From contig CAMEJH010000003.1 of assembly GCA_945919455.1 (NCBI GenBank), forward strand, positions 807 to 64,806: a stretch of DNA of 64,000 nucleotides, given 5' to 3'. This DNA comes from an uncultured Clostridium sp. GTDB taxonomy: Bacteria > Bacillota > Clostridia > TANB77 > CAG-508. Every line of letters begins with the position of its first letter. The stretch's first letter is position 1. The position numbers and the translations under genes were made by a program. A model generated the notes under the pieces. That model was not told the DNA's origin, made no database searches, and was given only the letters and a program-made list of their open reading frames with translations. Of the stretch, positions 32,198 to 52,503 are shown piece by piece.

Positions 32198-32725
32198 ATG
32201 AAAAAATTTTTAACAGTATCATTATTAGTTGTAATGTTAGTAATGGCAGCTGCTACAGTAGTAAATGCTGCAACATCAGCAACACTAGCAGATGAGCTAT
32301 ATGCAAAAGGAGCAAAATATGGAATGACATCATCAGACAAAGTAAAAATAGAAAGATACTTATCTGAAAATCCAGTTACAGACGCACAAGCTGATGCAGT
32401 ATTAGCAAAAGCAGATGAAGCAGTAGCTGTAATGGAAAGAGCAGGAGTAACAAATTATGATAAATTAACAACAGCACAAAAAGATGAATTAAAAGCAATA
32501 GCTAAATCAGCAGCAGAATTAATAGATGTTAAATTAGTTTTCAAAGCAGGATCAGTAGAAATTTACAACAAAGATGGAAAATTAATAGAAACAGTTACAG
32601 AAAATAATGGAAAATTAGCATACACAGGAAATAACGTAAATGTTGTTTTAGTTGTTTCTATAATAGCAATAATTGCCCTAGCTATCACTGTTGTAGCAAA
32701 GAAAACATTTGCAAATGCAAAATAA
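32198..32725 (+). CDS. Secreted protein with a variant cell-wall sorting signal (LAYTG)
   Basis: Signal peptide MKKFLTVSLLVVMLVMAAATVVNA. The C-terminus has LAYTG, a hydrophobic helix and a KKTFANAK tail. RBS aagggag. The gene sits directly upstream of a sortase gene. Confidence 0.6.
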   Translation: MKKFLTVSLLVVMLVMAAATVVNAATSATLADELYAKGAKYGMTSSDKVKIERYLSENPVTDAQADAVLAKADEAVAVMERAGVTNYDKLTTAQKDELKAIAKSAAELIDVKLVFKAGSVEIYNKDGKLIETVTENNGKLAYTGNNVNVVLVVSIIAIIALAITVVAKKTFANAK

Positions 32726-33338: not shown

Positions 33339-33351
33339 AAAGGAAGAAAAA

Positions 33352-34206: not shown

Positions 34207-34215
34207 GGGGAAGAG

Positions 34216-34947: not shown

Positions 34948-35984
34948 TGAAAAAAGAATTAATAGCGCATAAAGATCCAAAATCTCCTGTTTCTGAAATT
35001 TTTAGAACTTTAAGAACAAATATACAATTTATGAATTCAAACAAACAGCTAAAAACTTTATTAGTAACTTCAACATTACCAGGTGAAGGAAAAAGTTGGG
35101 TTTCTTCAAACTTAGCTGTAGCATTTGCACAAGCAGGAAAAAGAGTTGTATTAATAGATGCAGATATGAGAAAAGGAAGATTATATAATATATTTGGTGT
35201 ATTACCAAGACCTGGATTATCAAACTATCTTTCAGGAGTAAATGAAAATAGTTTCGAAAAAAATAATTTAGTAAATTTTTTAAGAGAAACAGAAGTACCA
35301 AACTTATATGTAATGCCAGCAGGTAATATTCCACCAAACCCATCAGAACTATTAATAACACCTCAGATGGTGAATTTACTAGATGAATTAAAACAAGAAT
35401 GTGATTTAATAATAATAGATGGTACACCATCAAAACTAGTTACAGATGCAGTAATATTATCTAGAATAGTAGATTCTACAATTGTAGTTACTGCACATAA
35501 TCAAACCAAAAAAGATGATTTACAAAAAGTAATTAGAGATATAAAAAATGTTGGAGGAAATGTTGCCGGAGTAGTATTTAATAAAATACCAGTTTCTGCA
35601 AAAAAATACAATGAAACATATTATTATTCATCAGTTACTCAAAAAACACAGGTAAAACCTAAAACAGAAGTTAATTATGAACAAAAAAGAGAAATACAAA
35701 GAAGCAGAACAATAGAAAATAATAGTAATGACAGAGAAACAAGAGAAACTCAAGAAAATTTAAAAACAAAAAGCAATGAATTAGAAGTTGAGGTTGAAAT
35801 ACCAAAGGCATTAAGAAAAGAAAAAACAGAACAGTTTATAACAATTCCAATGAGAGAAGAAACCAAAATACAAATAGAACCAGAAATTCCAAAAGAAAAA
35901 ACAGCAGAAGAAAGAACTGCAGAAGTACTTAAAGAATTTAATGAATATCTAAAGAAAGAAAAGAGAAGGAAAAACTATAAATAG
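34947..35984 (+). CDS. Tyrosine-protein kinase (BY-kinase, CpsD/YwqD-like) with a long C-terminal extension
   Basis: Walker A TSTLPGEGKS, Walker A' VVLIDADMRKG, Walker B LIIIDGTP and Tyr cluster YNETYYYSS. About 115 extra Lys/Glu-rich residues follow. Confidence 0.85.
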   Translation: MKKELIAHKDPKSPVSEIFRTLRTNIQFMNSNKQLKTLLVTSTLPGEGKSWVSSNLAVAFAQAGKRVVLIDADMRKGRLYNIFGVLPRPGLSNYLSGVNENSFEKNNLVNFLRETEVPNLYVMPAGNIPPNPSELLITPQMVNLLDELKQECDLIIIDGTPSKLVTDAVILSRIVDSTIVVTAHNQTKKDDLQKVIRDIKNVGGNVAGVVFNKIPVSAKKYNETYYYSSVTQKTQVKPKTEVNYEQKREIQRSRTIENNSNDRETRETQENLKTKSNELEVEVEIPKALRKEKTEQFITIPMREETKIQIEPEIPKEKTAEERTAEVLKEFNEYLKKEKRRKNYK

Positions 35985-35993
35985 GAGAGGAAC

Positions 35994-36698
35994 ATGATAG
36001 ACTTTCATTCACACATATTACCCAATGTAGATGACGGTTCTACAAGTATGGAAGAAACATTAAAGTTAATACAAGAAGCAAAAAATGCAGGTTTTACAAA
36101 AATAATTTCTACATCTCATTATATAGAGGACTATTATGAATGTGATGAAGAAACTAGAAAAGAACTTTTAGAACAAATCAGAGCAAGTTATTTAGATATA
36201 GAAATATGTCTTGGAAATGAAATATATTTAACAAGCGAAATTCCACAATTAATAAAAGAAAAAAAGGCATCAACTATAAACAATTCAAGATATGTATTAT
36301 TTGAACTTCCAATGAATGCAAAACCATTTAATGCAAAAGAAACAGTATATAGGCTAATAGAAAATGGATATACACCTGTAATAGCACATCCAGAAAGATA
36401 TAGTTATGTGCAAGAAACTCCTGAATATGTAGAAGAATTAGCTAATATGGGGGCATTATTTCAAGCAAATTTTGGAAGTGTAATAGGTTTATATGGAAAA
36501 AAAGCAGAAAAGAATGTACAAAAATTACTAAAACAAGATCTTATACCCTTTTTGGGCTCAGATGTTCATAGAACAGATCAAATTTATACAAAAGTACCAA
36601 AAATTTTAAAAAAATTAAATAAAATTATTTCAGAAGAAAAAATACAAGAACTTACAGAAATAAATCCACAAAAAGTTCTTAATAATGAAGAAATTTAA
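35994..36698 (+). CDS. Tyrosine-protein phosphatase, PHP family (CpsB/YwqE-like)
   Basis: MIDFHSHILPNVDDGS, SHY, AHPERY and GSDVH metal-binding motifs. Confidence 0.85.
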   Translation: MIDFHSHILPNVDDGSTSMEETLKLIQEAKNAGFTKIISTSHYIEDYYECDEETRKELLEQIRASYLDIEICLGNEIYLTSEIPQLIKEKKASTINNSRYVLFELPMNAKPFNAKETVYRLIENGYTPVIAHPERYSYVQETPEYVEELANMGALFQANFGSVIGLYGKKAEKNVQKLLKQDLIPFLGSDVHRTDQIYTKVPKILKKLNKIISEEKIQELTEINPQKVLNNEEI

Positions 36699-36710
36699 TG
36701 AATATAATAT

Positions 36711-38180: not shown

Positions 38181-39401
38181 ATGGCAGTAAATCCAATGCA
38201 AAGAAAATCAAGGAATTCATTTTTATTAGGAATAATAATAACATTATTAATTACAGGAATAATAATAATATTTTTATTCTTACAATTAAAAAAAGTAAAG
38301 GATGAACAAGCAGCAGCAGCAGCTTTGTTAGCTAATGTATATACATTGAATCAGGATGTAAAATCAGGTCAAATATTAACAGAAGATATGTTTTCATTAA
38401 AAAGTGTTGATAGAACAACAATACCAAGTAATGCAACTTCTGTTTTTGATGTAATATCTACATGGTTTTTACAAACAAAAGATGGAGAACCAGTACATAG
38501 AGACAAAGATGGATTATATTTAAATACTCCAGATTATATAATAGAAATATATTCTGAAAATGGAGGATATTATAAATTAAATAATGGTGAACATGAAACT
38601 ATAAGTATAAGAAATGATCCATATTCAGATGATGATGGAAGTTATGTTATTGATAGTAATAATATAGATACAACAACTAGAATATATGAAGAACCAACAG
38701 GAAATTTATACACATATAAGTGGGACAATGCTAACAAAACTAGAACGAAAGTGTACTTAGAATTAAATAATGTACCAGTGTTAGCTAAAGTTGATATGAA
38801 TGCTAATACAGTTATTACACCAGATCTTGTTGTTCAATCAGATGCAGTTGTTACTGATGATGTAAGAAGAGAAGAATATAATATGATAGTATTGCCAATG
38901 GATTTGATGACAGATGATTATATAGATATAAGATTAATGCTTCCTAACGGACAAAACTTTATAGTTATATCAAAAACACAAGTAGAAGTTCCTACAAATC
39001 AAGATGGATCTTATGTAGCTGATACTTTATGGTTAGAATTAAGAGAAGATGAAATTTTAGCATTATCTAGTGCTATAGTAGAAGCATATGGTATACCAGG
39101 TGCAAAATTATATGCAAATAAATATGCAGAACCTGGAATGCAAAACGCAGCTGTACCAAATTATACACCAAATAATGCTGTAACAGCTTTAATTAATGAA
39201 AATCCAAATATTGTTGAACAAGCATCACAAGAATTAGCTGCTAGATACTCACAACATTCAAAAGATGTAAGAAATCAATATTTGCAATCAGTAATAAATG
39301 ACGAAATGGGATATGATTCAAATACTCAATCTGGACTAGATGAATCATCATCAAATACACAAGCAACAAGAAAACAATACTTAGAATCTTTAACTTATTA
39401 A
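38181..39401 (+). CDS. CpaB/RcpC-like pilus assembly protein (N-terminal TM, SAF-like segment, beta-clip-like C-domain) with a large insertion
   Basis: TM FLLGIIITLLITGIIIIFLFL, then VYTLNQDVKSGQILTEDMFSLKSVDRTTIP (SAF-like), then DDYIDIRLMLPNGQNFIVISKTQV (resembling the CpaB GDxVDV...V strand). RBS aaggagg. Context with a Tad-type ATPase supports the call. Confidence 0.5.
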   Translation: MAVNPMQRKSRNSFLLGIIITLLITGIIIIFLFLQLKKVKDEQAAAAALLANVYTLNQDVKSGQILTEDMFSLKSVDRTTIPSNATSVFDVISTWFLQTKDGEPVHRDKDGLYLNTPDYIIEIYSENGGYYKLNNGEHETISIRNDPYSDDDGSYVIDSNNIDTTTRIYEEPTGNLYTYKWDNANKTRTKVYLELNNVPVLAKVDMNANTVITPDLVVQSDAVVTDDVRREEYNMIVLPMDLMTDDYIDIRLMLPNGQNFIVISKTQVEVPTNQDGSYVADTLWLELREDEILALSSAIVEAYGIPGAKLYANKYAEPGMQNAAVPNYTPNNAVTALINENPNIVEQASQELAARYSQHSKDVRNQYLQSVINDEMGYDSNTQSGLDESSSNTQATRKQYLESLTY

Positions 39402-39407
39402 TACAAT

Positions 39408-39428
39408 AAGGGCATGTAAAATGCCCTT
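39408..39428 (+). terminator. Intra-operon hairpin (possible attenuator or processing site)
   Basis: aagggcat (39408-39415) pairs with atgccctt (39421-39428). No T-run follows. Confidence 0.3.
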
Positions 39429-39479
39429 ACTGTGAAGTTTTAATACATTATTAGAAATAAGAAAGGAAGAAAAAACAAT

Positions 39480-40166
39480 ATGAAAAAAATCGGGTTTATA
39501 GGCGTATATGACAAAATCGATTTAGTGTTATGTATTGCAAAAATACTAACAAAAGCAGATAAAAAAGTTTTAGTTGCAGATGCTACCAAAATGCAAAAAA
39601 GCAAATATGTAGTACCAGCTATAAACCCTACAAAATCATATATAACAGAATTTGAGGGAATAGATGTAGCTATTGGATTTGATTCTATAGAGAATATAAA
39701 ACAATATTTAGGAATAGAAAAACAAGAAGATTTTGAATATGACATAATGCTAGTTGATACTGATGATTATGAAGGCGTAATTAATTATAATATCCAAGAT
39801 TCAGAAAAAATATATTACATAAGTTCATTTGATGCATATTCATTAAAAAAAGGAATTGAAATATTAACAAGAGTACAAGTTCCAATGCATATGACAAAAA
39901 TATTTTATTCGAAATCAATGCTAAAAGAGGAAGAAGATTATTTTGATTATTTAGCATTAGGACTAAAAATTGTGTGGAATGAAGAAAAATTATATTTTCT
40001 ATTAGAAAACGGAGATCTGGCAGCAATAATAGAAAATCAAAGAGTTTCAAAAATTAAATTAAAAAATTTAAGTAATGAATACAAAGAAAATGTAATTTTT
40101 TTAGTTAATGATATAGATAAAGAAATTGGAGAGAGAAAAATAAGAGGCATAGTGAAAAATCTATAA
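39480..40166 (+). CDS. ParA/MinD-fold protein lacking a Walker A lysine (TadZ/CpaE-like, degenerate)
   Basis: MKKIGFIGVYDKIDLVLCIAKILTKADKKVLVADAT follows the beta1-P-loop-helix layout of MinD/ParA, but GxxGKT is replaced by VYDKID. A later DIMLVDTD is Walker B-like. Confidence 0.45.
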   Translation: MKKIGFIGVYDKIDLVLCIAKILTKADKKVLVADATKMQKSKYVVPAINPTKSYITEFEGIDVAIGFDSIENIKQYLGIEKQEDFEYDIMLVDTDDYEGVINYNIQDSEKIYYISSFDAYSLKKGIEILTRVQVPMHMTKIFYSKSMLKEEEDYFDYLALGLKIVWNEEKLYFLLENGDLAAIIENQRVSKIKLKNLSNEYKENVIFLVNDIDKEIGERKIRGIVKNL

Positions 40167-40179
40167 AAGGAGAATTAGA

Positions 40180-41046
40180 ATGTCAATTGTAACATTTTGG
40201 AATGAAGATAGAGAACAAACTGGAAAAACTTTAACCGCAGTAGCTGTGGCAACAAAAATGGCAATAGAACGTAATTTTAAAATATTGTTATTATCAACAA
40301 GTTATATGGAACCAACAGTAAAAAATTGCTTTTGGACAGACAGTGCTCAAAAAAATTTAGGCATATTAGCAGGAAAAGGCAGTAACATAGCAGTTGAAAG
40401 TGGAATAGAAGGTTTATCAAAGTTAATTGCAAGCAATAAAATACAACCAACAATAATTACAGATTACACAAGAGTAATATTTAAAGACAGATTAGAAGTT
40501 CTAAATGGCTTTTCTGGATCACCAGATGCAACAGATGATGGCAATTTGCTAAATTATAAAAAAACATCAGAAAGTTATCCGGAATTAATAAAATTAGCAA
40601 ATCAATTTTATGATATGGTATTAGTCGATATTGATAGTATGTTGGATAAAACAATAAGAGATCAAATATTAGAAATGGCAAATGTTAATGTTTTAGTAAT
40701 TAGCCAAAGACTAGAAAGTCTAAATAGATATAACGAACGAAAAAAAACAGATAAACAAATAATAGGACCAAAATGTATACCTGTAATAGGAAAATATAAT
40801 AAAAATTCTAAATACAATAAGAAAAATATGATGAGATATTTGAATGAGAAAAAAGATTTAAATCTTGTTCCATTTAATACATTATTTTTTGAAGCAGCAG
40901 AAGAAGCTTCTGTAACAGAATTCTTCTTAAAGATGAGAGATATAAAAGATACTACTGATGATAATTATATTTTTATGTCAGAAGTATTAAAATTAACAAA
41001 TAATATTATAACTAGATTACAAGACTTGCAAATGAAAATGAGGTGA
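40180..41046 (+). CDS. ParA/MinD-fold protein with a deviant P-loop (TadZ/CpaE-like)
   Basis: SIVTFWNEDREQTGKTLTAVAVATKMA (GKT retained) and a Walker B-like MVLVDID. It lies adjacent to the Tad-type ATPase. Confidence 0.5.
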   Translation: MSIVTFWNEDREQTGKTLTAVAVATKMAIERNFKILLLSTSYMEPTVKNCFWTDSAQKNLGILAGKGSNIAVESGIEGLSKLIASNKIQPTIITDYTRVIFKDRLEVLNGFSGSPDATDDGNLLNYKKTSESYPELIKLANQFYDMVLVDIDSMLDKTIRDQILEMANVNVLVISQRLESLNRYNERKKTDKQIIGPKCIPVIGKYNKNSKYNKKNMMRYLNEKKDLNLVPFNTLFFEAAEEASVTEFFLKMRDIKDTTDDNYIFMSEVLKLTNNIITRLQDLQMKMR

Positions 41047-41050
41047 GAAA

Positions 41051-43039
41051 ATGTCAATATTTAACACAATTCTAATAATTGTTATATTTGTTGTAGCAAT
41101 AATGGCAGTTCTATATTATGTTAATAAAAACAAAAATGCAGAAGTAGAGCAAGAGGTTGAAAAAGATGATAAAACATATACTCTTGAAAAAATGAGAGAC
41201 TATGTAAAAAAGAGATTAGATGAAATAACTAAAATAAACTTATATGATATAGGATTATCAGAAGAGGAATTAAAAAGAAGAAAAAATAAAAAATATGCAT
41301 TAAAAAAGGCATTAAAAGGATGTACATATGGAGATGTTAATGATAAAAGATATGTAAAAGAACTAATTGGGGATCTATTATCAAAAGAATATGGTATAGA
41401 CGAAACAAATATATCAAACGCAATTCCATTTGACATTCCATCATTGCTTACATCTCAAGATAAATTTGACATTTTACTTTATACATATAAAAAAGAATTT
41501 GGATATGAAGCTTTAACACAGTTAATTAAAAGATATAATTTAGCAACATTAAAATATATCCAAGGAGAGACAAAGCCTTGTTATGTAATAACAGATGATG
41601 AGATTGATGAAATATATGAAAAAGAAAATATAGTATTATCGTTCCAAGATAAACTAGAAGTAGTAGTACAAAGAATTTATCAACACTATAAAGGATATAG
41701 TTCTATAGATGAAATAAGAGACATGAATATAGACGGTGTATCTGGAGGTGTATCTGGATTACCAGAAAGCTTCTTAAGTCAAGTTGCACAAACAGAGGGA
41801 GATTATTTAGAACAAGTAAGTGAGCACAAAGTTCCAAGAGCTTGTGATAGTATATGGATATTTTTCCAAGGTAAATCAATACGTTTAGCATTTTTATCAT
41901 TTGGAACAGAATCAGAACTAAAAAGAGTTTGTCAAAATATTTACAAATATAATAATCCTGGACAATTATCAGATACAAATGGTTATAAGATCAATGAAAT
42001 GAAAGATGGTTCACGTGTTGTTGTAGTAAGACCAAGCATGTCAGAAACATGGGCATTCTTTGTAAGAAAATTTGACGTAAAAAGAGCTACACTAGAACAA
42101 ATAGTAACTTACCCAGGATATGAAGAAACAATTAATTTATTAAAATATCTTGTAAAAGGTGCAAGAATTATATCACTAACAGGTGAGCAGGGTTGTGGTA
42201 AAACAACAATGCTTATGGCAATGATAGAAAACATATATGAAACAATGAACTTACGTATTACAGAAACTGCATTTGAGTTACACTTAAGAAAAATTTATCC
42301 AACAAGAAACATATTATCAATGCGAGAGACAGATACAATAGCTGGACAAGAGTGTTTGGACGTTCAGAAAAAAACAGATGGTTCTGTAAACATCATAGGT
42401 GAGGTTGCAACAGACCCCGTAGCATCTTGGATGATACAATCTGCACAGGTTGCATCTAAATTTACATTATTTACTCACCACGCTAAAACATTTCCAGATT
42501 TAGTAACAGCTCTTCGTAACTCAATGTTAAGAGCAGGAGTATTCAAAAACGAAAAAACTGCAGAAGAACAAGTTGTACAAGTACTAAACTTTGATATACA
42601 TTTAGTAAAAGACTTTAGAGGAAGAAGATATATAGAAAGAGTAACAGAATGTATACCAGTAGAAGATCAATCAACATATGATCATGACTACAAAAGTGAA
42701 AAAACAATGGATGGAAAAGTAGAAAAATTTTTCCAAAATGCAACAACATATTTTTCAAAATCAACAGAACAAAAATTATATACATATCAAAATATATTAG
42801 AATATGTCGATGGAGAATATGTTATAACCAATAAAATATCAGATAAAAATCTTCAAGAAATGAGAGCTAATATGGATGAATCAGATGTTGAAGAGTTTGA
42901 TAAATTTGTTGAAAGAAATTGGGGAGAACAAATAAGAAAAGAAAAATTGGAAAGACAAGCAGAAAACGTTGGAGTATCAGTTAGTTTAGCAGATACAGAT
43001 TCTCCAAAAAGAAGAGGAAGAAAACCAAAAAATGCATAA
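41051..43039 (+). CDS. Type II/IV secretion-family ATPase (CpaF/TadA/VirB11-like) with an N-terminal transmembrane helix
   Basis: Walker A LTGEQGCGKTT (about 42182-42208), ITETAFEL (Asp box-like), Walker B-like DGSVNIIGEV and His box FTLFTHHAKT. N-terminus MSIFNTILIIVIFVVAIMAVLYY. The C-terminal tail is basic (PKRRGRKPKNA). Confidence 0.75.
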   Translation: MSIFNTILIIVIFVVAIMAVLYYVNKNKNAEVEQEVEKDDKTYTLEKMRDYVKKRLDEITKINLYDIGLSEEELKRRKNKKYALKKALKGCTYGDVNDKRYVKELIGDLLSKEYGIDETNISNAIPFDIPSLLTSQDKFDILLYTYKKEFGYEALTQLIKRYNLATLKYIQGETKPCYVITDDEIDEIYEKENIVLSFQDKLEVVVQRIYQHYKGYSSIDEIRDMNIDGVSGGVSGLPESFLSQVAQTEGDYLEQVSEHKVPRACDSIWIFFQGKSIRLAFLSFGTESELKRVCQNIYKYNNPGQLSDTNGYKINEMKDGSRVVVVRPSMSETWAFFVRKFDVKRATLEQIVTYPGYEETINLLKYLVKGARIISLTGEQGCGKTTMLMAMIENIYETMNLRITETAFELHLRKIYPTRNILSMRETDTIAGQECLDVQKKTDGSVNIIGEVATDPVASWMIQSAQVASKFTLFTHHAKTFPDLVTALRNSMLRAGVFKNEKTAEEQVVQVLNFDIHLVKDFRGRRYIERVTECIPVEDQSTYDHDYKSEKTMDGKVEKFFQNATTYFSKSTEQKLYTYQNILEYVDGEYVITNKISDKNLQEMRANMDESDVEEFDKFVERNWGEQIRKEKLERQAENVGVSVSLADTDSPKRRGRKPKNA

Positions 43040-43073
43040 GAATTTTAAGAGCATAGGAGGTGTTTTTATATAA

Positions 43074-45140
43074 ATGGATACAAGTATACTAAAATATATT
43101 ATGATTGGGACAGGTGTACTATTTGCTATTGTTATTGGAGTATATATAATCTTAACCAAGAAAATGGGTAAGTCTGAATATAGACAAATGAAAAAACTGC
43201 AAGAAGGAACAAAAGCAGATTCATTTTCTATGGATGTATTGTATCAAAAGTTGTATTTAACATATATAAAAATGCCTTTTATAAAAAGATACATATATAA
43301 ATTAAGAAGAAGACTAGAAATATTAAATATAGATGATGAATATACAACAAGAAAAGATTCTGCAAGAATATTGACAAATGCAATACTTATATTAATACCT
43401 ATTGTTGCGTTGACAATAATAATAACACATAATAATACTTTACTTATGAGTATACTATTAATTTTTGAATTATTTATTGTAGATACAGCAGTAGATGGAA
43501 TGGTCGATAAAATAGATAATAATCTACTAAGAGAACAAATAGACTTTTTTGCAGAAATAAGACATGCATACCATGAATATAATATGGTTGAAGAAGCAAT
43601 ATACCAAGTATCATTAGATGATGAAAAAAATGTTTCAAAGCAAGGTGAAAAAATTTATGAAATATTAAGCTCTGATGATCCAGAGACAGAACTTGAAAAA
43701 TACTATGATATTGCACCAAATAGCTATTTAAAAGAATTTGCTGGAATATCATATTTAACACAAGAATTTGGAGATAGACAAGAAGATGGATCTTCTTTAT
43801 ATCTTAAAAATATAAACAACATAACACAAGAAATGCAGATAGAAATATTAAAGAGGGATAAATTAAATTATGTATTCCAAAGTTTAGCGTTTATCTCAAT
43901 TGCGCCAGTACTATTGCTAGAACCATTAAAGAATTGGTCAGTTTCTAACTTTACATTTACTACTAGTTTTTATAATGGAAAATTAGGAATGATTATACAA
44001 ATATTAATTGTATTATTAACAGTAATATCATATATCATGACAAGAAAACTAAAAGATAATGGAGGAGTACAAGTAGATATATCTACAAATCAGCATCCAT
44101 GGCAAGAAAAAGTATACAAAAATCCAGCTTTAAAGAAAATAATAAATGCATTTATACCAAAAAAAGGTTCAAAGGATTATAGAAAAATGCAGAAATTATT
44201 AAAGGATTCTGCATCAAAATCTAAAATGGAATGGGTGTATATAAATAGAATTTGCTTAGCAATAGTTGCATTTATTGCAACAATAATATTATCAGCACAG
44301 TTACATAGAATAGCTATAAACTATATATATACAGAACCAACAACAGAAACAGTAGTTATGGGAACATTATCAGAAGCGAACCAAAGAAAAGCAGATGAAC
44401 TTACAAAACAAGATAATTATTTTCTGGACAAGCTAAAAGGTAAACTAGATATAACCCAAGAGGAAATTGAAAAAGAGATGATAAAATCTCCTTATTATGA
44501 AGAAGGCGATGAAAAATTACATACAGATGCAGAAAGAATTTTGGAAAAACTGAACGTAGTAAATTCTGAAAATATGCAGTGGTTTGAAGAATTATTAGCA
44601 ATAGTATTTGCAATAGTTGCTTATATGGCTCCAGTTTGGATGATGTACTTCCAAAAGAAAATGAGACAAATGGATATGGAAAGCGAAGTAATGCAGTTCC
44701 AAACAATTATAGTAATGTTAATGAAAATAGAAAGAGTAAATGTAGAAATGATTCTTGAATGGTTAGAAAGATATGCAAACATATTCAAAGAACCTATATC
44801 AAGATGTGTAAACAATTATGAAGCTGGAGCTTGGGAAGCACTAGAAGAACTAAAAAATTCAGTAACAAATCAAGATATGATAAGAATTGCAGAAAGCTTA
44901 CAGGCAGCAGTAGAAAAAATTCCAATTAGAGAAGCTTTTGATGAGTTAGATGCAGATAGAGATTATCACCAAGAAAAGAGAAAAGAAACAAACAATCAAT
45001 TAATATCAAGAAAAGGACTAATAGGAAAAGGTGTAGGTTTTGCACCTATGATATGTCTATTTGTTGGATATTTAATAGTTCCATTAGTTGTAATAGGAAT
45101 CTCAAGTATGTCAGGAGCATTTACTCAATTAGGTGGATAA
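43074..45140 (+). CDS. Polytopic platform protein, TadB/TadC (GspF-fold)-like
   Basis: About 7 TM helices. The C-terminal cytoplasmic helical bundle MESEVMQFQTIIVMLMKIERVNVEMILEWLERYANIFKEPISRCVNNY...AWEALEELK...IAESLQAAVEKIPIREAFDEL follows the T2SSF repeat pattern and is followed by a TM. It sits immediately after the ATPase. Confidence 0.5.
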   Translation: MDTSILKYIMIGTGVLFAIVIGVYIILTKKMGKSEYRQMKKLQEGTKADSFSMDVLYQKLYLTYIKMPFIKRYIYKLRRRLEILNIDDEYTTRKDSARILTNAILILIPIVALTIIITHNNTLLMSILLIFELFIVDTAVDGMVDKIDNNLLREQIDFFAEIRHAYHEYNMVEEAIYQVSLDDEKNVSKQGEKIYEILSSDDPETELEKYYDIAPNSYLKEFAGISYLTQEFGDRQEDGSSLYLKNINNITQEMQIEILKRDKLNYVFQSLAFISIAPVLLLEPLKNWSVSNFTFTTSFYNGKLGMIIQILIVLLTVISYIMTRKLKDNGGVQVDISTNQHPWQEKVYKNPALKKIINAFIPKKGSKDYRKMQKLLKDSASKSKMEWVYINRICLAIVAFIATIILSAQLHRIAINYIYTEPTTETVVMGTLSEANQRKADELTKQDNYFLDKLKGKLDITQEEIEKEMIKSPYYEEGDEKLHTDAERILEKLNVVNSENMQWFEELLAIVFAIVAYMAPVWMMYFQKKMRQMDMESEVMQFQTIIVMLMKIERVNVEMILEWLERYANIFKEPISRCVNNYEAGAWEALEELKNSVTNQDMIRIAESLQAAVEKIPIREAFDELDADRDYHQEKRKETNNQLISRKGLIGKGVGFAPMICLFVGYLIVPLVVIGISSMSGAFTQLGG

Positions 45141-45155
45141 AATCAGGAGGTTTAG

Positions 45156-45959
45156 ATGGAAAATGCAACAAAAGCTTTGTTAATAGCTGCTGGAGTTATG
45201 ATAGCAGTTATGATATTATCATTATTGCTTATTGGGTATAATCAAATTTCTGATTACTATAACAAACAACATGAAAGTACTGAAGTAGATCAATTAACAA
45301 AATTTAATAGTAAATTTGAAAATTACCATAGAAACAAAATAAGAGGTAGTGACATGATATCTCTTATGAATAGAGTAAGAGATTACAATGCAACACAACA
45401 TTACCAACAAGGAACAGGATATGAAAGAATAATTGTAAAAATATCTATAGGAACGAGTAATTTAGACAGTTTTAGATATATTACACAGTCAAATAAAACT
45501 AATTATAATTTTACATATGAATCAATACTTCCTAATACAGGAATTATAACAAATGAATCTGGATCTGATGATCAATTAGTAAGTGTAACTAGTAAAATTA
45601 CTGATGAAATTAATAATAATTCATCATTAGGAGTATCTGATACAAATCTACAAACTCTAGCAGCAAATATATCTAATATTGTATTAGCAACTAGTATAGA
45701 GAATTCATCCTTAGAATATGATCAAAGAACAAGGGAAAAAAGAATAAATTTATTGAAAAACACATTAAAATTATCAGAAGATCAGATAAATAGCAATTTA
45801 GAAAAAATTAAAAAGATAACTTGTCAATATTATGAATATACTCAATTTAAAAGAGCATATTTTGACTGTACAGAAGTTAAATATGATGAAAAAACAGGAA
45901 GAGTTTGTGAAATGAACTTTGAAGTTAGAACAAATGGCGGAAATGTAGAATTCAATTAA
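45156..45959 (+). CDS. Pilin-like protein, MENATKALLIAA family (large paralogue, 267 aa)
   Basis: N-terminus MENATKALLIAAGVMIAVMILSLLLIGYNQ. RBS caggagg. C-terminal motif YFDCTEVKYDEKTGRVCEMNFEV. Many N-x-S/T sequons. Confidence 0.6.
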   Translation: MENATKALLIAAGVMIAVMILSLLLIGYNQISDYYNKQHESTEVDQLTKFNSKFENYHRNKIRGSDMISLMNRVRDYNATQHYQQGTGYERIIVKISIGTSNLDSFRYITQSNKTNYNFTYESILPNTGIITNESGSDDQLVSVTSKITDEINNNSSLGVSDTNLQTLAANISNIVLATSIENSSLEYDQRTREKRINLLKNTLKLSEDQINSNLEKIKKITCQYYEYTQFKRAYFDCTEVKYDEKTGRVCEMNFEVRTNGGNVEFN

Positions 45960-45981
45960 TATATGTGAAAGGAAATTATAG

Positions 45982-46509
45982 ATGGAAAATGCAACCAAAG
46001 CATTATTAATAGCTGCTGGGGTATTAATAGGAATAATGATAATTTCATTAGGTGTTGTGTTATATTATTCATTGCAAGTATATGTTGTAGAAACACAACA
46101 AACTATGGAAGAAAATGCTATTAGTAAATTTAATACACAATTTTTGAAATATATTAATATGACAGAAGATTCAAGTGGTGCTATTATTTTAAATGGTAAA
46201 AAATATAATATGGATTTTAGACTTAGACTACAAGATGTAATTACTGCTGCTAATATAGCCTATGAAAATAATAAACAGCTTGGACTAGAAGAAGGACAAA
46301 CAGCTGATGCAAATGAAAATAATTTATATGTACGAGTAAATGTACTTTTTAATGGGGTAACACCACAAAAAAACAGTATAGAAAAAGATATAAATAAAAC
46401 AGCTTCAGAGTTATTGCAACAAGACAATGATTATGAATATAAATGTACTGATATTGATATAAAAATAAGTGAAAAAACAGGAAGAGTTTATGAAATAACT
46501 TTTAAATAA
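45982..46509 (+). CDS. Pilin-like protein, MENATKALLIAA family (175 aa)
   Basis: N-terminus MENATKALLIAAGVLIGIMIISLGVVLYYS. C-terminal motif YKCTDIDIKISEKTGRVYEITFK. Confidence 0.6.
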   Translation: MENATKALLIAAGVLIGIMIISLGVVLYYSLQVYVVETQQTMEENAISKFNTQFLKYINMTEDSSGAIILNGKKYNMDFRLRLQDVITAANIAYENNKQLGLEEGQTADANENNLYVRVNVLFNGVTPQKNSIEKDINKTASELLQQDNDYEYKCTDIDIKISEKTGRVYEITFK

Positions 46510-46552
46510 CTCTTGAGTTAATAAAAACAAAATGATATAATGAGGATAGAAT

Positions 46553-46987
46553 ATGAAAAAAATATTTATATTTTTTGCAATTGTTATAATAGTAGTTGCT
46601 ATAATAGGAGTTAGATATTATTCTTATAAAGTAGATTATAATGCAATATTAAAAGAAAATGCAGAATATGAACAGTATAAAGATAAAGAAATATATGGAT
46701 TAGACTTAGCTTCTATGATAAACAAGACTGTTGATAAAAATTTAAAAAATAAAATAGAAAAATCAGAAGATGGAAATTTTATACAAAATGATGAAAATTC
46801 TATAGAAATAGAAATATATATTTTAGACAATGAAACAACATATAAAATGGAAACTTTCTATAATAAAGGAACAGAGCAATTTGTGCAATATTATGGAAAT
46901 ATAAAATTTAAATGTTCAAAAATAGAATATCATAAAAATACAGGAAAAATAAAATATCTATTATTTGAACAAATATCAGATAGTTAA
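46553..46987 (+). CDS. Small membrane-anchored protein sharing the C-terminal module of the pilin-like paralogues
   Basis: N-terminus MKKIFIFFAIVIIVVAIIGVRYY (not MENAT). C-terminal FKCSKIEYHKNTGKIKYLLFEQ aligns with the Cys...KTG[RK] motif of 45156 and 45982. Confidence 0.55.
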   Translation: MKKIFIFFAIVIIVVAIIGVRYYSYKVDYNAILKENAEYEQYKDKEIYGLDLASMINKTVDKNLKNKIEKSEDGNFIQNDENSIEIEIYILDNETTYKMETFYNKGTEQFVQYYGNIKFKCSKIEYHKNTGKIKYLLFEQISDS

Positions 46988-47049
46988 TAAAGTTCGATAA
47001 AATATTTTATCGATTTCAATAAACAAAAGTAAAAAGGAGGGAAAAAACT

Positions 47050-47475
47050 ATGGAGAACGCAACCAAAGCATTGCTAATTGCAGCAGCAGTTTTAGTAGCA
47101 ATACTAATTATCTCTTTAGGACTAGTTGTTTACAATATGGCTGCAGAGACAGTACAAAGTGTAAACATTGACGAGACAGAAATACAAGCACACAACGAAA
47201 AATTCACTAGATATGAAGGAGAGGCTAAAAGAGGTAATGATGTTAATGGTTTACTAAACCAAGCTTTAAATTACAATATGGCTCAAACAGATGATGCTAA
47301 AAAAGTACAAATAAGCTACAAAGGTTCAGGAGCAGGTGCAGCAACAGAAGTTCTTTTATATACTAGCCAAAAAACAAGTGCAAAAAAGGTTGACACAGGA
47401 AGAACATATAAAGTTGTAGGTATTCGTGATACAGTATCTGGATTAATAACAAAAATTGAAATAACACAAAATTAA
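47050..47475 (+). CDS. Pilin-like protein, MENATKALLIAA family; candidate major subunit (141 aa)
   Basis: N-terminus MENATKALLIAAAVLVAILIISLGLVVYNM. It has the best RBS in the operon (aaaaggaggg) and is the smallest paralogue. The sequence is Ala/Gly/Thr-rich and the C-terminus is SGLITKIEITQN. Confidence 0.6.
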   Translation: MENATKALLIAAAVLVAILIISLGLVVYNMAAETVQSVNIDETEIQAHNEKFTRYEGEAKRGNDVNGLLNQALNYNMAQTDDAKKVQISYKGSGAGAATEVLLYTSQKTSAKKVDTGRTYKVVGIRDTVSGLITKIEITQN

Positions 47476-47502
47476 TTTAATATAAGAGAAAGGAGATATA
47501 CT

Positions 47503-48120
47503 ATGGAAAATATAACAGAAGCATTAAAAATTGCATTTGGAGTTATGATGTTTGTGTTAGCATTAACCCTTAGTATATCTTGTTTTTCTCAAGCTAGAGT
47601 TGCAATTGACAATGTAATTACAATAAAAGATAGGGAATCAGAATATACATATGTTAAAACTTCAAGTAATACAAAAAATAGAATTGTTAGTGTAGAAACA
47701 ATAATTCCTACAATTTATAAGGCATACAAAGAAAATTTTAGTATAGAGTTTTATAAATCAGATGGAGTAACTCCATTATATTTATATACATATGTAGATC
47801 CAAATCATATAAAAACAAATGTAAATTATATTGATTTAAAAAGAGAAATATTGCCAGATGCAACAGAAGCAATTAAACATTTCGATACATTATTAGGATC
47901 TGAAACTAATAAGCCGTTAAATTTTAGAGATAATTTTATATATACAGATGGATTATATGAATTTTTTAAAAACAATAAATTTGAAGAACGATTGGGAGAA
48001 TATTACCAAGAAGACGCCTTAGAAGGAACTGTAACAAATACATTAGAAATAAATAAAACTAAAAAAAGAATTATATCATATATATTACAGGAACCAGCTA
48101 ATGGAGTAAGAGAACCATAA
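47503..48120 (+). CDS. Pilin-like protein, divergent MENxT family member (205 aa)
   Basis: N-terminus MENITEALKIAFGVMMFVLALTLSISCFSQ. RBS aaaggag. Confidence 0.55.
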   Translation: MENITEALKIAFGVMMFVLALTLSISCFSQARVAIDNVITIKDRESEYTYVKTSSNTKNRIVSVETIIPTIYKAYKENFSIEFYKSDGVTPLYLYTYVDPNHIKTNVNYIDLKREILPDATEAIKHFDTLLGSETNKPLNFRDNFIYTDGLYEFFKNNKFEERLGEYYQEDALEGTVTNTLEINKTKKRIISYILQEPANGVREP

Positions 48121-48169
48121 TAAAATTAGAAAGGAGAAATGTTAGTATTTTTGCTAACAATTGTTATAT

Positions 48170-48739
48170 ATGGAAGATTCAACAATTTCAATAATAGGAA
48201 TTATAATAGCATCAATATTAATGTTTATAGTTCCACTTGTTTTAATTGCAGACAGGAGTGACGATATATCACATTTAACTGTACAAACTCTTACAGCTCA
48301 ATTTGTTGATAATATTATTAAGCATGGAAAGATAACTAATGAGGATTATGGAAGGTATATTTCATCATTATCTTCTACTGGAAATACTTATGATATTGAA
48401 ATAGAAATAAAAATTTTAGATGAAAATACTGCTCAAAGAGAAACTAATAATGATACTAATGCAGGAATAGGACAAAATTCATATTATTCAATATATACTA
48501 GTCAGATTGAAGAAAAATTAGCGGAAACACAACCAGATCTATCTAACCCAACTAATTCTTTAAATAAAACAGGACAACTAATTTTAAAAGAAGGAGATGT
48601 AATTTCAGTAACTGCTAAAAATAGTAGTAAAACATTATCTCAGACACTAAAAAGCATTTATTATAATATAAAGGGAGAAGATCTTCATATTATAGCGGGT
48701 GCAAGTACTGGAACAATTGCTGTTAATGGAGCAATATAA
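48170..48739 (+). CDS. Pilin-like protein, divergent MEDxT family member (about 189 aa)
   Basis: N-terminus MEDSTISIIGIIIASILMFIVPLVLIADRS. The start is uncertain (TTG 48161 or ATG 48170). The only SD (aaggag, 48131-48136) sits 2 nt before an out-of-frame ATG at 48139. Confidence 0.5.
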   Translation: MEDSTISIIGIIIASILMFIVPLVLIADRSDDISHLTVQTLTAQFVDNIIKHGKITNEDYGRYISSLSSTGNTYDIEIEIKILDENTAQRETNNDTNAGIGQNSYYSIYTSQIEEKLAETQPDLSNPTNSLNKTGQLILKEGDVISVTAKNSSKTLSQTLKSIYYNIKGEDLHIIAGASTGTIAVNGAI

Positions 48740-48807: not shown

Positions 48808-50601
48808 ATGAATATAATTTATACATTAACGACAGTATTAATACTTGTTTTGCATATATTAATATATAAAAAAGAGGAAAAAGAAAATATTATAAAATGG
48901 ATAGTAATAAGTATAATGCTTCTATTTTGTTATAATATTTGTATAAGTGTTATAATGTCATTAATACATATACCGATAAATTTGTTAAGTTTAACAATAA
49001 TCAATATAATAATATTATTATTACTAAGTATAAAGATTTATAAAAATAAAAAAATTCAAAAATATACAATAAATAAAATAGATATTATTGGTATTATAAT
49101 ATTTTCTTTAATTACACTAATAGTAGTAATAAAAGAATACGGAATACCATTAAATATGAATAATTCAATTACAGATGGAGCAGTACATTATTTTGCAGCA
49201 GATGAATTTTATAAATCATCAAAATTACTAGATAAAAATTCAGAAACATTTGATTTTTGGAATTTTTCAACCTTTATGCCAGGTGCATATATTAATACTG
49301 GAATTTTATTTAAAATGTTTTCTGGAATAATTGATGAAATATATTTTTGCAAAATATATTTAATATTGAATGTATTTATTTGGTATTTATCAGGTGTACT
49401 AATGTATATATTATTAAGTAAAGACAAAAAACAAGAAAAGCAAAAAATTTTACCATTAATATTTTCGTTAGTATATATGTTAGCATATCCCTTAAATAGC
49501 TTAATTGCTGGATTCTCATATCTTTCTTTAGCATTAAACTTTATAATTACAATATTAATAGTTACACAACTTAAAATTAATAGTTACTATAAATATATCA
49601 TAATGTTTTTACTAAATTTTGGATTATTCTTCTCTTACTATTATTTTTTGCCAGTAGTATATGTAGCACTATTTTTACAAATAATAATAGATGCAAAGAA
49701 AAATAAAAACAAAATATTTGCCAAAGAAAATATAGTTAATGTAATATATACTTTACTATTTCCGGGATTATTTGGACTGATGTATTTTGAAATATTCCCA
49801 CTTATTACAGCTTCACAAAATCCTATTTCAGAAACTGCTGTAGCTCTTGGAATAGAGGGCAGTATTTATAGCAATTTTATAACAAACATATTAATATTTT
49901 TAGTATTATCAATATGTCAAATAATATACAATTTAAAAAATAAAAAAACAAATATATCAGAAACAATGTTAATTTTAAATCTAATATTTTTAGTAATTAT
50001 ATTTATTGGAATGAAATCTAACATAGTTTCAAATTATTACTATTATAAATTATATTATTTAATTTGGATATTTGTTTTAATTGTAGGATATAATATGATT
50101 GAAACAATAATCTCAAAAGGAAAAATAATAAAGATTGTAGCATATATTTTAACTACAATATACTGTTTGGGAATAGTAATAGCTATGTGTTTTAACAAAA
50201 ATTTTATATTTTTTGATATATATAAAGAAAACCGCAATAATTTAAATTCTGAAATTAAAATAATATATGAAGAGGAATTAGAAGTTATTAAATACTATAA
50301 TGAAAATATTAATATAGATAAGCATAAAGACAGTAAAACATATTTTTGTGTAACACCATATGAAGCTGCTAGAGCATATTGGATATATGCACTTACTAAA
50401 AATCCATTTGACTATATAGATGTGTCATATGGAGAATATGCATATGATTTAAAATGGTTTATAGAAAGTGAGAATAATTATGCTGTAATATTTAAAGAAG
50501 ATTATTTTGGAAACTTTGATGAGATAGATAAAGAAATAGAAAAGGAAGATGTAAAAATACTTTTTAGAAATAAAATGGGAATCATCCTTGAGAAAAATTA
50601 A
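48808..50601 (+). CDS. Large polytopic membrane protein with a C-terminal soluble domain (possible GT-C-fold glycosyltransferase; function unknown)
   Basis: 597 aa with more than 12 hydrophobic segments and an early extracytoplasmic loop containing ITDGAVHYFAADEF. The soluble tail of about 120 aa starts near YKENRNNLNSE. RBS aagggag. Confidence 0.45.
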   Translation: MNIIYTLTTVLILVLHILIYKKEEKENIIKWIVISIMLLFCYNICISVIMSLIHIPINLLSLTIINIIILLLLSIKIYKNKKIQKYTINKIDIIGIIIFSLITLIVVIKEYGIPLNMNNSITDGAVHYFAADEFYKSSKLLDKNSETFDFWNFSTFMPGAYINTGILFKMFSGIIDEIYFCKIYLILNVFIWYLSGVLMYILLSKDKKQEKQKILPLIFSLVYMLAYPLNSLIAGFSYLSLALNFIITILIVTQLKINSYYKYIIMFLLNFGLFFSYYYFLPVVYVALFLQIIIDAKKNKNKIFAKENIVNVIYTLLFPGLFGLMYFEIFPLITASQNPISETAVALGIEGSIYSNFITNILIFLVLSICQIIYNLKNKKTNISETMLILNLIFLVIIFIGMKSNIVSNYYYYKLYYLIWIFVLIVGYNMIETIISKGKIIKIVAYILTTIYCLGIVIAMCFNKNFIFFDIYKENRNNLNSEIKIIYEEELEVIKYYNENINIDKHKDSKTYFCVTPYEAARAYWIYALTKNPFDYIDVSYGEYAYDLKWFIESENNYAVIFKEDYFGNFDEIDKEIEKEDVKILFRNKMGIILEKN

Positions 50602-50652: not shown

Positions 50653-51876
50653 ATGAAAACACTCAAAAAAATTAGTTTATTATTTGTATTATTTTTTATA
50701 TTTATATATACAATTTCAATAGAAAATATTCCAAAAACAATATTTATATTTGAAGGAGAAAAAATTAATTTTTCTACATTATGGGGAATACAAATAAAAA
50801 GACAAGACAGTTCAATAGAAACTTCTACTAATTTATCTTCAGATATTTTTGAAAAAGCTGGTAATGAAAAGTTAACAGTAAGTTTATTTAATAAAATTGA
50901 TATAAAAACAATTGATGTAAATGTGATGGAAGAAACAGAGATTATACCAGTTGGAGAAATTGTAGGAATAAAGTTATATACAAGTGGAGTATTAGTAGTT
51001 GGAACTTCTTCAATAGAGAATAAAGATGGAGAGATATGTAAACCATTTGAAAACACAGGAATACAAGAAGGAGACTCTATAATTGCTATAAATCAAAATA
51101 TAGTAAATAATACAGAAGAATTAATAAATGCAGTAAATGAAGCACAAGGAGAGAGTATAAACATAACTTATGTAAGAAATGATGAAGAAAAGACATGTGA
51201 GATAAAACCTGTTAAAGATAAAGATGATAAATATAAAATTGGATTATGGGTTAGAGATAGTGCAGCAGGGGTAGGAACAATAACTTTTTATAATGAACAA
51301 ACAAATAGTTTTGCTGCATTAGGTCATGCAATAACAGATATAGATACAGGGGATATAATAAACACATCATCTGGAGAAATTGACAATGTTAATATTATAT
51401 CAATTGTTAAAGGAGCGAAAGAAGAGCCTGGTAAAATACAGGGAACTTTAAAGAATAATACAGCCATAGGAAATATATATAAAAACACAAAATATGGTAT
51501 TTATGGAGTAATAAAAAATGCAGATGATTTATCAATAAATTATAATAACAAAATGAAAGTAGCGTCAAGGCAAGAAATAAAAACAGGAGCAGCCAAGCTT
51601 CTATGTGGTGTAGATAATGGAATAAAAGAATATGATATAGAAATACAAAAGATTTATTTAAATAATAATTATGATAATAAAAGTATGTTAATAAAAGTTA
51701 CAGATCAAGAACTTATAAATAAAACAGGTGGAATAGTACAAGGAATGAGTGGTTCTCCTATTATTCAAAATGGAAAATTTGTTGGAGCAGTAACACATGT
51801 ATTTGTAAATGATCCACAGATTGGATATGCTGTTTTTGGAGATATTATGATAAAACAATTAAGTGAAATTAAATAA
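50653..51876 (+). CDS. spoIVB: Stage IV sporulation protein B (S55 signalling serine peptidase)
   Basis: Signal anchor, PVGEIVGIKLYTSGVLVVG, a PDZ segment (GIQEGDSIIAINQ), GTITFYNEQTNSFAALGH and catalytic GMSGSPI. Confidence 0.9.
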   Translation: MKTLKKISLLFVLFFIFIYTISIENIPKTIFIFEGEKINFSTLWGIQIKRQDSSIETSTNLSSDIFEKAGNEKLTVSLFNKIDIKTIDVNVMEETEIIPVGEIVGIKLYTSGVLVVGTSSIENKDGEICKPFENTGIQEGDSIIAINQNIVNNTEELINAVNEAQGESINITYVRNDEEKTCEIKPVKDKDDKYKIGLWVRDSAAGVGTITFYNEQTNSFAALGHAITDIDTGDIINTSSGEIDNVNIISIVKGAKEEPGKIQGTLKNNTAIGNIYKNTKYGIYGVIKNADDLSINYNNKMKVASRQEIKTGAAKLLCGVDNGIKEYDIEIQKIYLNNNYDNKSMLIKVTDQELINKTGGIVQGMSGSPIIQNGKFVGAVTHVFVNDPQIGYAVFGDIMIKQLSEIK

Positions 51877-51908: not shown

Positions 51909-52175
51909 TTAGTTGAACACAACTCCAGTTCCGTTTAAATTTTCGCTTTGGACATCATTTATATTATTAATTCCTTCATAACCTAAAAATCTATTAACAT
52001 TTTTTTGCGCAATTCCAGTTTCTGTAGCTATAGTATCTACTGAAGAAAAGCCATTTTGTTCAATATAAGATTTAAATGTAGATAATTCTAAATTATCTTT
52101 ACTAGCACATTTTGGACAGACATCTCCATCATTAGCATAAAAAGCTCCACAACGACTACATTTATTTAGTTCCAT
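51909..52175 (-). CDS. Zinc-ribbon protein of the YvyF / TIGR03826 'flagellar operon protein' type
   Basis: MELNKCSRCGAFYANDGDVCPKCASKD followed by a helical HTH-like region (SVDTIATETGIAQKNVNRFL). This resembles B. subtilis YvyF. The start at 52175 is preferred (RBS agaaagga). Confidence 0.55.
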   Translation of the reverse strand: MELNKCSRCGAFYANDGDVCPKCASKDNLELSTFKSYIEQNGFSSVDTIATETGIAQKNVNRFLGYEGINNINDVQSENLNGTGVVFN

Positions 52176-52279
52176 AAGATCAGATCCTTTCTCTAAAGTA
52201 TATTCTGGCTGCATTTTATCATAAAAAGAAGAAAATAGAAAGGGGTTTTAAAAAATATTTAAAAAATTTATAAAAATCC

Positions 52280-52327: not shown

Positions 52328-52401
<74 letters not shown>

Positions 52402-52429: not shown

Positions 52430-52503
<74 letters not shown>

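Follow-up and report, generated by a model that had tools for sequence, protein, structure and literature searches.

Type IV filaments are built from pilins that carry a class III signal peptide (i.e., a hydrophilic leader of 6-26 residues ending in Gly at position -1), followed by ~21 hydrophobic residues with Glu at position 5, and that are cleaved by a dedicated peptidase (PMC4471445). This prepilin peptidase is counted among the four universal components of type IV filaments (PMC4471445), and the signal peptide together with its peptidase is treated as universal to them (PMC4471445, PMC6668835). Known prepilin peptidases need Gly, or Ala in archaea, at position -1 (PMC4471445). Here, we analyzed a stretch of 64,000 nucleotides (nt) from an uncultured Clostridium sp. 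(contig CAMEJH010000003.1 of assembly GCA_945919455.1, positions 807 to 64,806; hereafter, the window), which contains an operon for a putative pilus-like filament. Its six small proteins, p1 to p6, are encoded at 45156-48739, and five of them begin directly with a hydrophobic helix and lack any leader.

The closest described locus is a putative pilus cluster reported in Nature Communications in 2024; in TANB77, an uncultured order, it is present in 122 of the 129 species (PMC11680825). It comprises proteins 927-938 of HRGM_Genome_2725, listed in Table 1 of that paper as CpaB, TadZ, CpaE, TadA with one transmembrane (TM) helix, a TadC+TadB fusion of ~690 amino acids (aa) with eight TM segments, six small single-TM proteins and the 621-aa protein 938 (PMC11680825). 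Structural homology was reported for 928 to TadZ, for 929 to CpaE and for the two platform halves to TadC and TadB; for the six small proteins, the third of which has a signal peptide, homology was not detected, and the 'pilin-like' label of 932-937 came from context, size and topology (PMC11680825). The sole experiment was performed with recombinant protein 938, and the abundance of TANB77 and of the 'pilin-like' genes correlates with response to checkpoint immunotherapy (PMC11680825). The text of that paper makes no mention of a leader, the N-terminus or a prepilin peptidase. The gene order and sizes of 927-937 match the window, with p1-p6 corresponding to 932-937 and the CpaB-like gene to 927, and both the published cluster and the type found in the window are restricted to metagenome-assembled genomes (MAGs) of uncultured gut Clostridia. 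They differ at the end of the cluster, where the published locus has the 621-aa 938, whereas the window has no 938 orthologue and encodes a 597-aa polytopic protein instead. Our literature search found no further paper on the TANB77 pilus system and nothing relevant on leaderless or peptidase-independent pilins. The locus itself is already published; what is new is that the whole family lacks a class III signal peptide. Also new are the domain common to p1-p4, the conservation of the helix with p3 as a control, the p6 model and the finding that the window and related loci hold no gene for a peptidase of the A24 family. That the published study reached a 'pilin-like' annotation for orthologous genes independently supports the same interpretation in the sequence-only reading of this DNA from which our analysis started.

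Three better-known systems frame the comparison. The Tad/Flp (type IVc) systems of Aggregatibacter, Caulobacter and Bifidobacterium have in common with this locus a CpaF/TadA ATPase, a SAF protein of the presumed CpaB/RcpC type and, going by PMC11680825, a TadZ/CpaE ParA-like protein and a TadB/TadC platform. They also have several subunit genes with an N-terminal hydrophobic helix, with two larger 'pseudopilin-like' genes after the major one. However, Flp pilins are 40-80 aa long, with a 10-26-aa leader ending in Gly and a Glu5-Tyr6 pair, whereas the proteins here are 141-267 aa long, leaderless and marked by Glu2 (plus Lys6). In addition, TadB and TadC are fused here (per PMC11680825), the ATPase has a TM helix and the locus has no linked TadV. 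Archaeal type IV pili (Epd-like, Aap and Ups), the presumed ancestors of Tad systems (PMC6668835), resemble the locus in their larger pilins, in a shorter N-terminal helix joined to a compact globular domain, in the frequent absence of Glu5 and, in many systems, in fused or two-domain platforms (PMC6668835). Archaeal pilins have class III signal peptides that are cut by PibD, FlaK or EppA after Gly or Ala, whereas none are present here; furthermore, no archaeal-type profile matched, and the host belongs to the spore-forming Clostridia (SpoIVB is adjacent). The Com pseudopilus (ComGA-GG plus ComC) is alike in its monoderm host, one ATPase, one platform, one major and four or five minor subunits and single operon, but ComG proteins have canonical leaders processed by ComC, and the ATPase here is matched better by TadA/CpaF than by ComGA.

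The sequence-only reading had placed six open reading frames (ORFs) at 45156-48739 and held that five of them begin with ME[ND] followed by a hydrophobic helix; both coordinates and N-termini are as claimed, and all six genes lie on the + strand. p1 (45156-45959, 267 aa, beginning MENATKALLIAAGV) and p2 (45982-46509, 175 aa) are ME[ND]-type pilin-like paralogues, and p3 (46553-46987) is a paralogue of the globular domain of p1, p2 and p4 that has an ordinary MKK plus hydrophobic N-terminus (a signal peptide or anchor). The candidate major subunit is p4 (47050-47475, 141 aa, beginning MENATKALLIAAAVLVAILIISLGL). p5 (47503-48120, 205 aa) is of the ME[ND] type with an acidic residue, not Lys, at position 6; like p6 (48170-48739, 189 aa, beginning MEDSTISIIG..., with position 2 variable in orthologues), it has an unrelated globular domain.

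The starts of these genes are well bounded. A stop codon lies immediately 5' of the ATG in p1 and p2, and in p4 and p5 nine in-frame codons lead back to a stop without an alternative start. p6 has a possible TTG start at 48161, three codons 5', and its homologues as called by others begin at the ATG at 48170 (189 aa). We found 323 ME[ND]-type genes in the window and 82 related loci; no in-frame upstream start is possible in 298 of them (the preceding stop lies at a median distance of 6 codons), and a Shine-Dalgarno motif precedes 294 of the ATGs by 4-12 nt. Searching with a p4-family profile at E<=1e-3 returned 5237 clusters at the 50% identity level, of which 1941 reached E<=1e-10. The 120 closest p4 homologues all begin with MENATKAL and match from residue 1; likewise, the best 150 of the 5237 cluster representatives all match from residue 1 and begin with MENA[ST]KAL or a close variant. 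The ME[ND] ATGs of p1, p2, p4, p5 and p6 are the true starts, and the leader is absent as the sequence-only reading had proposed, with only about three residues ahead of the hydrophobic tract.

A motif scan together with a Pfam scan of polytopic proteins revealed no A24 peptidase in the 64-kb window, and none is encoded in 79 related loci of ~20 kb. Of the traits of type IV pilins, these proteins have the hydrophobic tract and the ATPase and platform context, and they lack the leader, Gly(-1), Glu5 and profile matches; the conserved acid is Glu2. The Glu-Tyr pair is missing from p1-p6 and there is no Gly cleavage context, in agreement with what had been read from the letters; position 5 is Thr or Ser. 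The traits of Flp/Fap pilins (PF04964) are also absent, as shown by the size range (141-267 aa), the missing Glu-Tyr pair and the absence of a PF04964 match. The suggested resemblance of the N-terminus to that of Flp pilins has no profile or fold match behind it. Methionine aminopeptidase leaves Met in place before Glu, and the expected mature N-terminus is therefore Met1-Glu2-Asn3.

Conservation is concentrated in the N-terminal helix. In a 20-sequence alignment of p4, the 24 N-terminal residues were invariant, with the remainder averaging ~50% identity. The majority-residue fraction in residues 1-26 versus the rest of the protein was 0.68 versus 0.34 for p1, 0.76 versus 0.39 for p2, 0.80 versus 0.41 for p4 and 0.72 versus 0.42 for p5. 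This pattern was reversed in p3 (0.52 for the N-terminus versus 0.60 for the globular part), the internal control of this comparison, in which the same globular domain is joined to an ordinary MKK anchor. In the ME[ND] proteins, conservation over the first ~26 residues is thus about double that over the rest, which would be expected of an assembly helix and not of a plain membrane anchor. Glu2 is present in ~95% of p1, p2, p4 and p5, and Lys6 is conserved in p1, p2 and p4, with Asp or Glu taking its place in p5. Position 2 of p6 is variable (E, G, S, D or N). Tip subunits of classical pilus systems do without Glu5. By analogy, the variability of p6 at position 2 may recall these Glu5-free subunits. 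Residues 7-27 of p4 are hydrophobic. The flank after the helix, as read from the sequences, is strongly acidic; an N-in, C-out topology is therefore predicted, as it likewise is in PMC11680825. We rejected the possibility that the helix is a cleaved Sec signal peptide, because of its length (20+ residues), its lack of a good AXA site and its conservation, which is the highest in the protein.

To compare the globular parts we removed the first 32 residues and aligned residue 33 onward with HHalign. The globular parts of p1, p2, p3 and p4 are mutually homologous (89-98.7%, E 2e-6 to 3e-16), with p3 matching p1 at 98.7%, p2 at 97.3% and p4 at 88.9%, whereas those of p5 and p6 are unrelated to p1-p4 and to one another. 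One N-terminal module is thereby carried on three unrelated globular domains by five proteins of adjacent operon genes (p1, p2, p4, p5 and p6). By analogy with described systems, one helix module with three ectodomains in five proteins is the pattern of major and minor pilins. The C-terminal motif that the sequence-only reading had noticed in three of the proteins is real and forms part of this wider homology, which covers p1, p2, p3 and also p4. The C-terminal hairpins of p1 (87%; Cys238, 45867-45869), p2 (91%; Cys155, 46444-46446) and p3 (93%; Cys121, 46913-46915) share one conserved Cys at an equivalent position, which is absent in p4. A conserved Cys that is single and unpaired in three paralogues is suggestive of a bond between molecules or of ligand or metal binding. 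The synonymous differences among the N-terminal coding regions are also real: within the first 25 codons, 5 identical residues are differently encoded between p1 and p2, 11 between p1 and p4 and 12 between p2 and p4. As a separate observation, some p4 homologues (P0046, P0206, P0225 and P0263) end in Ser/Thr/Pro/Gly-rich low-complexity tails (e.g., TTTTPTPTPTP or SSSSSSSTP). Tails like these are usually seen on proteins that are exposed at the surface and may be glycosylated.

We next turned to predicted structures. The AlphaFold2 model of p4 (predicted local distance difference test (pLDDT) score 83) has a helix at residues 2-32, an ill-defined hinge at 30-37 and a compact two-helix, five-strand alpha/beta domain; that of p6 (pLDDT 75) has a continuous helix of 50 residues (3-52) followed by strands. 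These modeled layouts are compatible with pilins. Neither model has an enzyme fold, and no known non-filament family was matched in Pfam, NCBIfam or the PDB. Membership in the pilins cannot be claimed from the fold, but the proteins are not simple anchors of recognizable enzymes.

The distribution of the family provided a further line of evidence. Taking one genome per species, we matched N-terminal patterns at 158 places and kept 79 distinct loci of ~20 kb each. All 79 come from gut MAGs (human, rabbit, goat and deer) that are assigned to uncultured Clostridia or 'Clostridium sp.'. The gene order across them is HAD hydrolase, CpaB-like, two ParA-like, ATPase, platform, p1 to p6, a variable gene in some cases, and SpoIVB, and a locus with the commoner MENASKALIIAG variant has the same layout. 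Identity across loci is 25-82% for p1-p6. The sequence-only reading had suggested checking co-occurrence with the ATPase and platform genes; the p genes lie directly downstream of both, in the window as well as in all genome loci whose length allows this to be seen. Because the neighborhood is identical everywhere, the p4 family is never found away from the ATPase and platform, and the loci that we examined present one conserved context with no homologue outside it. None of the outcomes that the sequence-only reading had named as refuting it (homologues widespread elsewhere, a known non-filament family, an anchor of an unrelated enzyme fold) was observed, and its pilin-like interpretation is supported. 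This fixed chromosomal position, from the HAD hydrolase gene to spoIVB in 79 species-level loci, also led us to reject an origin from a prophage, plasmid or conjugation system, which had been a candidate since TIGR03819 is named 'conjugal transfer-associated'.

The p genes close an operon of eleven head-to-tail genes on the + strand (38181-48739) that encode the CpaB-like protein, the two ParA-like proteins, the ATPase, the platform and p1-p6. Among the machinery genes, the ATPase is the sole assignment that its sequence makes firm. This 662-aa protein (41051-43039, +) belongs to the CpaF/TadA family of secretion ATPases: it matched the TadA family TIGR03819 at 1.2e-8 and ComGA at 4.3e-4 (NCBIfam), and its closest solved relatives are the CpaF structures 8rkd, 8rjf and 9e24 (E 7.7e-10). 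Its match to Pfam T2SSE (3.8e-5, 22.9 bits) is slightly under the cut-off of 24.9. Between genome loci, ATPase identity ranges over 66-94%. CpaF/TadA ATPases are normally cytoplasmic, and an N-terminal TM helix is unusual in the family. Here, a TM helix is formed by residues 3-21 (encoded at 41051-41120), and the published orthologue was likewise reported with one TM helix (PMC11680825). The presumed platform (43074-45140, +; 688 aa with eight hydrophobic segments) always adjoins the ATPase and is 43-89% identical across loci. Pfam (T2SSF) and the PDB, the latter searched with the single sequence and with a 30-sequence profile, gave no match, and an HHalign comparison of its N- and C-terminal halves, expected to reveal a TadC/TadB duplication, found no internal repeat. 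Its designation as a TadC-TadB fusion is presumed from the structural comparison published in PMC11680825.

The remaining machinery genes precede the ATPase. The first gene of the operon (38181-39401, +) encodes a CpaB/RcpC-like protein with one TM helix and a SAF domain (Pfam SAF, 3.8e-5 and 24.6 bits against a cut-off of 21; TIGR03177 CpaB weakly, at 4.6e-3), and it is syntenic across the 79 genome loci. Two ParA/MinD-like proteins follow. The first, a degenerate TadZ-like copy (39480-40166, +), had no significant match in a Pfam scan and is 32-80% identical across loci, where its position is kept; the second, TadZ/CpaE-like (40180-41046, +), had weak sequence matches to CbiA (7e-3) and a tyrosine-autokinase P-loop family (6e-5) in Pfam and NCBIfam. 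Both ParA-like assignments are weak by sequence, and the TadZ/CpaE identity is structure-based (PMC11680825).

On balance, we lean toward the reading that TANB77, an order of uncultured gut Clostridia, has as a fixed part of its chromosome an operon for a filament of Tad origin (type IVc-like), and that the subunits of this filament are mature as soon as they are translated. The proposed mechanism would run as follows. p1, p2, p4, p5 and p6 would insert N-in with the globular domain outside, so that Met-Glu-Asn/Asp alone would face the cytoplasm. Because these subunits have no leader, they would be synthesized assembly-competent and a prepilin peptidase would not be needed. The CpaF-like ATPase, itself anchored in the membrane, would act with the TadC-TadB fusion platform to pull the subunits out of the membrane, and the extracted subunits would stack via their near-invariant N-terminal helices. 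Glu2, Lys6 (in p1, p2 and p4) and the N-terminal amine would neutralize charge in the core, as Glu5 and the N-terminal amine do in classical pilins. p4 would be the major subunit, with p1 and p2 as paralogous low-abundance subunits. p5 and p6, with their different globular domains and, in p6, no fixed acid at position 2, may prime or cap the filament like TadE/TadF or GspK-type minor pilins, and p3 would be a non-polymerizing paralogue retained in the membrane or wall. The gene starts, synteny, paralogy, conservation pattern, ATPase family and lack of a peptidase gene in the window and the 79 loci are results of the analysis, and polymerization, the individual subunit roles, the charge-pair logic and the absence of processing are what we infer.

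The broader proposal is that a whole order of gut Clostridia makes a type IV-class filament from mature-translated subunits, with no class III signal peptide or prepilin peptidase and with Met1-Glu2(-Lys6) replacing the processed N-terminus and Glu5; this we regard as credible but tentative, somewhat short of probable. If true, it would remove one of the four components held to be universal to the type IV filament superfamily. A natural leaderless system would show that the role of the leader is membrane targeting and control of assembly, not polymerization itself; it would also explain why profile searches missed these pilins, and it would offer a minimal machine for engineering. The family concerned is large, with 5237 clusters; all are unannotated and none has a Pfam domain. 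In addition, the clade is of medical interest (PMC11680825), and the identity of the exposed abundant subunit and of its mature N-terminus bears directly on follow-up work.

Several observations weigh against the leaderless filament. The putative filament is predicted from genes and protein models. The p4 model breaks the N-terminal helix at 30-37, with low confidence, and so has no single long alpha-1. When the models were compared with the PDB by Foldseek, nothing significant came up: E was 0.28 at best for p4 and 0.028, to a kinesin, for p6, and the matches returned, to EcoRII, NTF2-like proteins and kinesin, are noise. The best match of the p4-family profile to PDB sequences had an E of 1.2. 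In Pfam and NCBIfam, all six small proteins gave sub-threshold noise alone, with no match at E<=1 to PF07963, TIGR02532 or the pilin, Flp and TadE profiles. By its sequence, the platform is tied to none of the GspF, TadB or TadC families. Codon usage gives p4 little help as a highly expressed gene: its C-ending codons amount to 0.40 versus 0.04-0.16 in the window but to 0.18 versus 0.11-0.14 when pooled over orthologues, and we do not rely on this bias, which is weak after pooling, as proof of high expression. Finally, genes for prepilin peptidases frequently lie apart from the loci of their filaments and serve more than one system (PMC6668835), and one may be encoded outside the window and the loci searched.

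This last point would also allow a three-residue leader (MEN, ahead of ATKALL...) to be removed by an unlinked, divergent prepilin peptidase or by another protease. The search for a peptidase covered the 64-kb window and ~20 kb per related locus, and the sequence left after such a cut, ATKALLIAA, is loosely like mature Flp. However, such a cut would put Asn or Asp at -1, where known enzymes need Gly (or Ala in archaea), and bacterial leaders under 6 residues are not listed in the review cited for these criteria (PMC4471445). M-E-N hardly varies, whether among thousands of sequences or among the paralogues. Real leader peptides are variable in sequence. The conservation of M-E-N therefore fits residues that function in the mature protein, and we consider a short cleaved leader improbable. 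We give a somewhat larger, though still small, chance to a short wall-spanning pseudopilus, in the manner of the type II secretion system (T2SS) or Com, instead of a long surface pilus; as a piston or conduit, it would secrete protein or take up DNA. The composition of the locus is like that of the monoderm Com system in having a single ATPase, a single platform and one major-like subunit beside four or five minor-like ones (PMC4471445), genomes of the clade are small (one complete chromosome is 1.55 Mb), and the cluster is vertically fixed like a housekeeping function, with an ATPase 66-94% identical across loci. Yet the machinery is of the Tad type (CpaF-like ATPase, TadZ-like and CpaB-like proteins) and not of the ComGA/GspE type. 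Moreover, the p4 globular domain evolves fast (~50% identity) behind a frozen helix, as in exposed major pilins, and the large surface-type 938 proteins that follow p6 in many other loci, with Ig/Fn3 domains in one case, suggest an adhesive tip.

The least probable of the alternatives, in our view, is a static envelope complex of non-polymerizing single-pass surface or wall proteins whose helix docks to the ATPase and platform or to each other. Such a complex would be in keeping with the lack of a fold match to any pilin, with p3, which shows the same globular domain working with an ordinary anchor, and with the single conserved Cys of p1, p2 and p3, which hints at a fixed hetero-complex. But the helix is near-invariant over >1000 sequences, whereas plain anchors are usually poorly conserved, as that of p3 is; a dedicated secretion ATPase and platform would have no obvious role for static proteins; and five proteins with different ectodomains and one helix module bear the signature of co-assembling subunits.

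Within the preferred reading of a filament operon with leaderless subunits, p4 would be the major subunit, because it has the shortest sequence, the best Shine-Dalgarno site, the most conserved helix and the fastest-evolving head. The sequence-only reading had singled out the same gene, and its grounds proved accurate: p4 is the shortest at 141 aa, has the best Shine-Dalgarno site (AAGGAGGG) and has the highest combined content of Ala, Gly and Thr (0.28 versus 0.12-0.22). Its upstream spacer (46988-47049) is the longest in the operon (median 67 nt) and contains a hairpin on the + strand at 46994-47013, ~9 nt 3' of the p3 stop codon, with the structure UCGAUAAA-AUAU-UUUAUCGA. All 29 orthologous spacers have a hairpin in this position, and because their 5' arms are of 25 different sequences, the pairing has been maintained by compensatory changes. 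The hairpin is followed on its 3' side by a conserved AAUAAACAAAAGU and then by the strong p4 Shine-Dalgarno site. One possibility is that the hairpin sets the dose of p4, either as a leaky terminator or by processing or stabilizing the mRNA. Consensus scans for promoters and terminators were uninformative in this AT-rich DNA (115 promoter-like sites versus 121 expected), and Rfam revealed no riboswitch upstream of the operon. Separately, within 48128-48261 of the window, the good Shine-Dalgarno motif ahead of p6 (AAAGGAG) belongs to an ATG in another frame, at 48139. This ATG opens a 40-codon ORF overlapping the p6 start at 48170; the p6 ATG itself has no Shine-Dalgarno motif, although in other loci such a site lies directly 5' of p6.

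Downstream of p6, the window encodes an accessory polytopic membrane protein of 597 aa (48808-50601, +) with ~12-14 TM segments and a C-terminal soluble domain. This protein follows p6 in 17 of the 79 genome loci; the slot is otherwise empty or occupied by a large single-TM '938-type' protein. In other loci, 938-type proteins are 430-1239 aa long and begin MK[IL]Q.L..IF.IIILP..., and the Ig/Fn3 domains mentioned above belong to one of them. Pfam and the PDB gave no match for the 597-aa protein, and a role for it as a pilin glycosyltransferase is speculation.

The surroundings of the operon are those of a spore-forming Firmicute, with a GC content of ~27% over the window. SpoIVB (50653-51876) is adjacent to the operon region, and rpsF-ssb-rpsR lies at 52.6-53.7 kb. 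The only Rfam matches were two tRNAs near 52.3-52.5 kb. These genes (52328-52398 and 52430-52500) are each 71 nt long and score 73 bits, are ~100 nt apart and lie between a small minus-strand ORF (51909-52214) and rpsF. Upstream of the operon, 22000-36700 is a surface-polysaccharide region that encodes a Wzy-type polymerase, a flippase, glycosyltransferases, a Wzz-like protein, a tyrosine kinase and a PHP phosphatase. Also upstream, a sortase gene (32709-33338) adjoins a gene for a small Ala-rich secreted protein (32198-32725).

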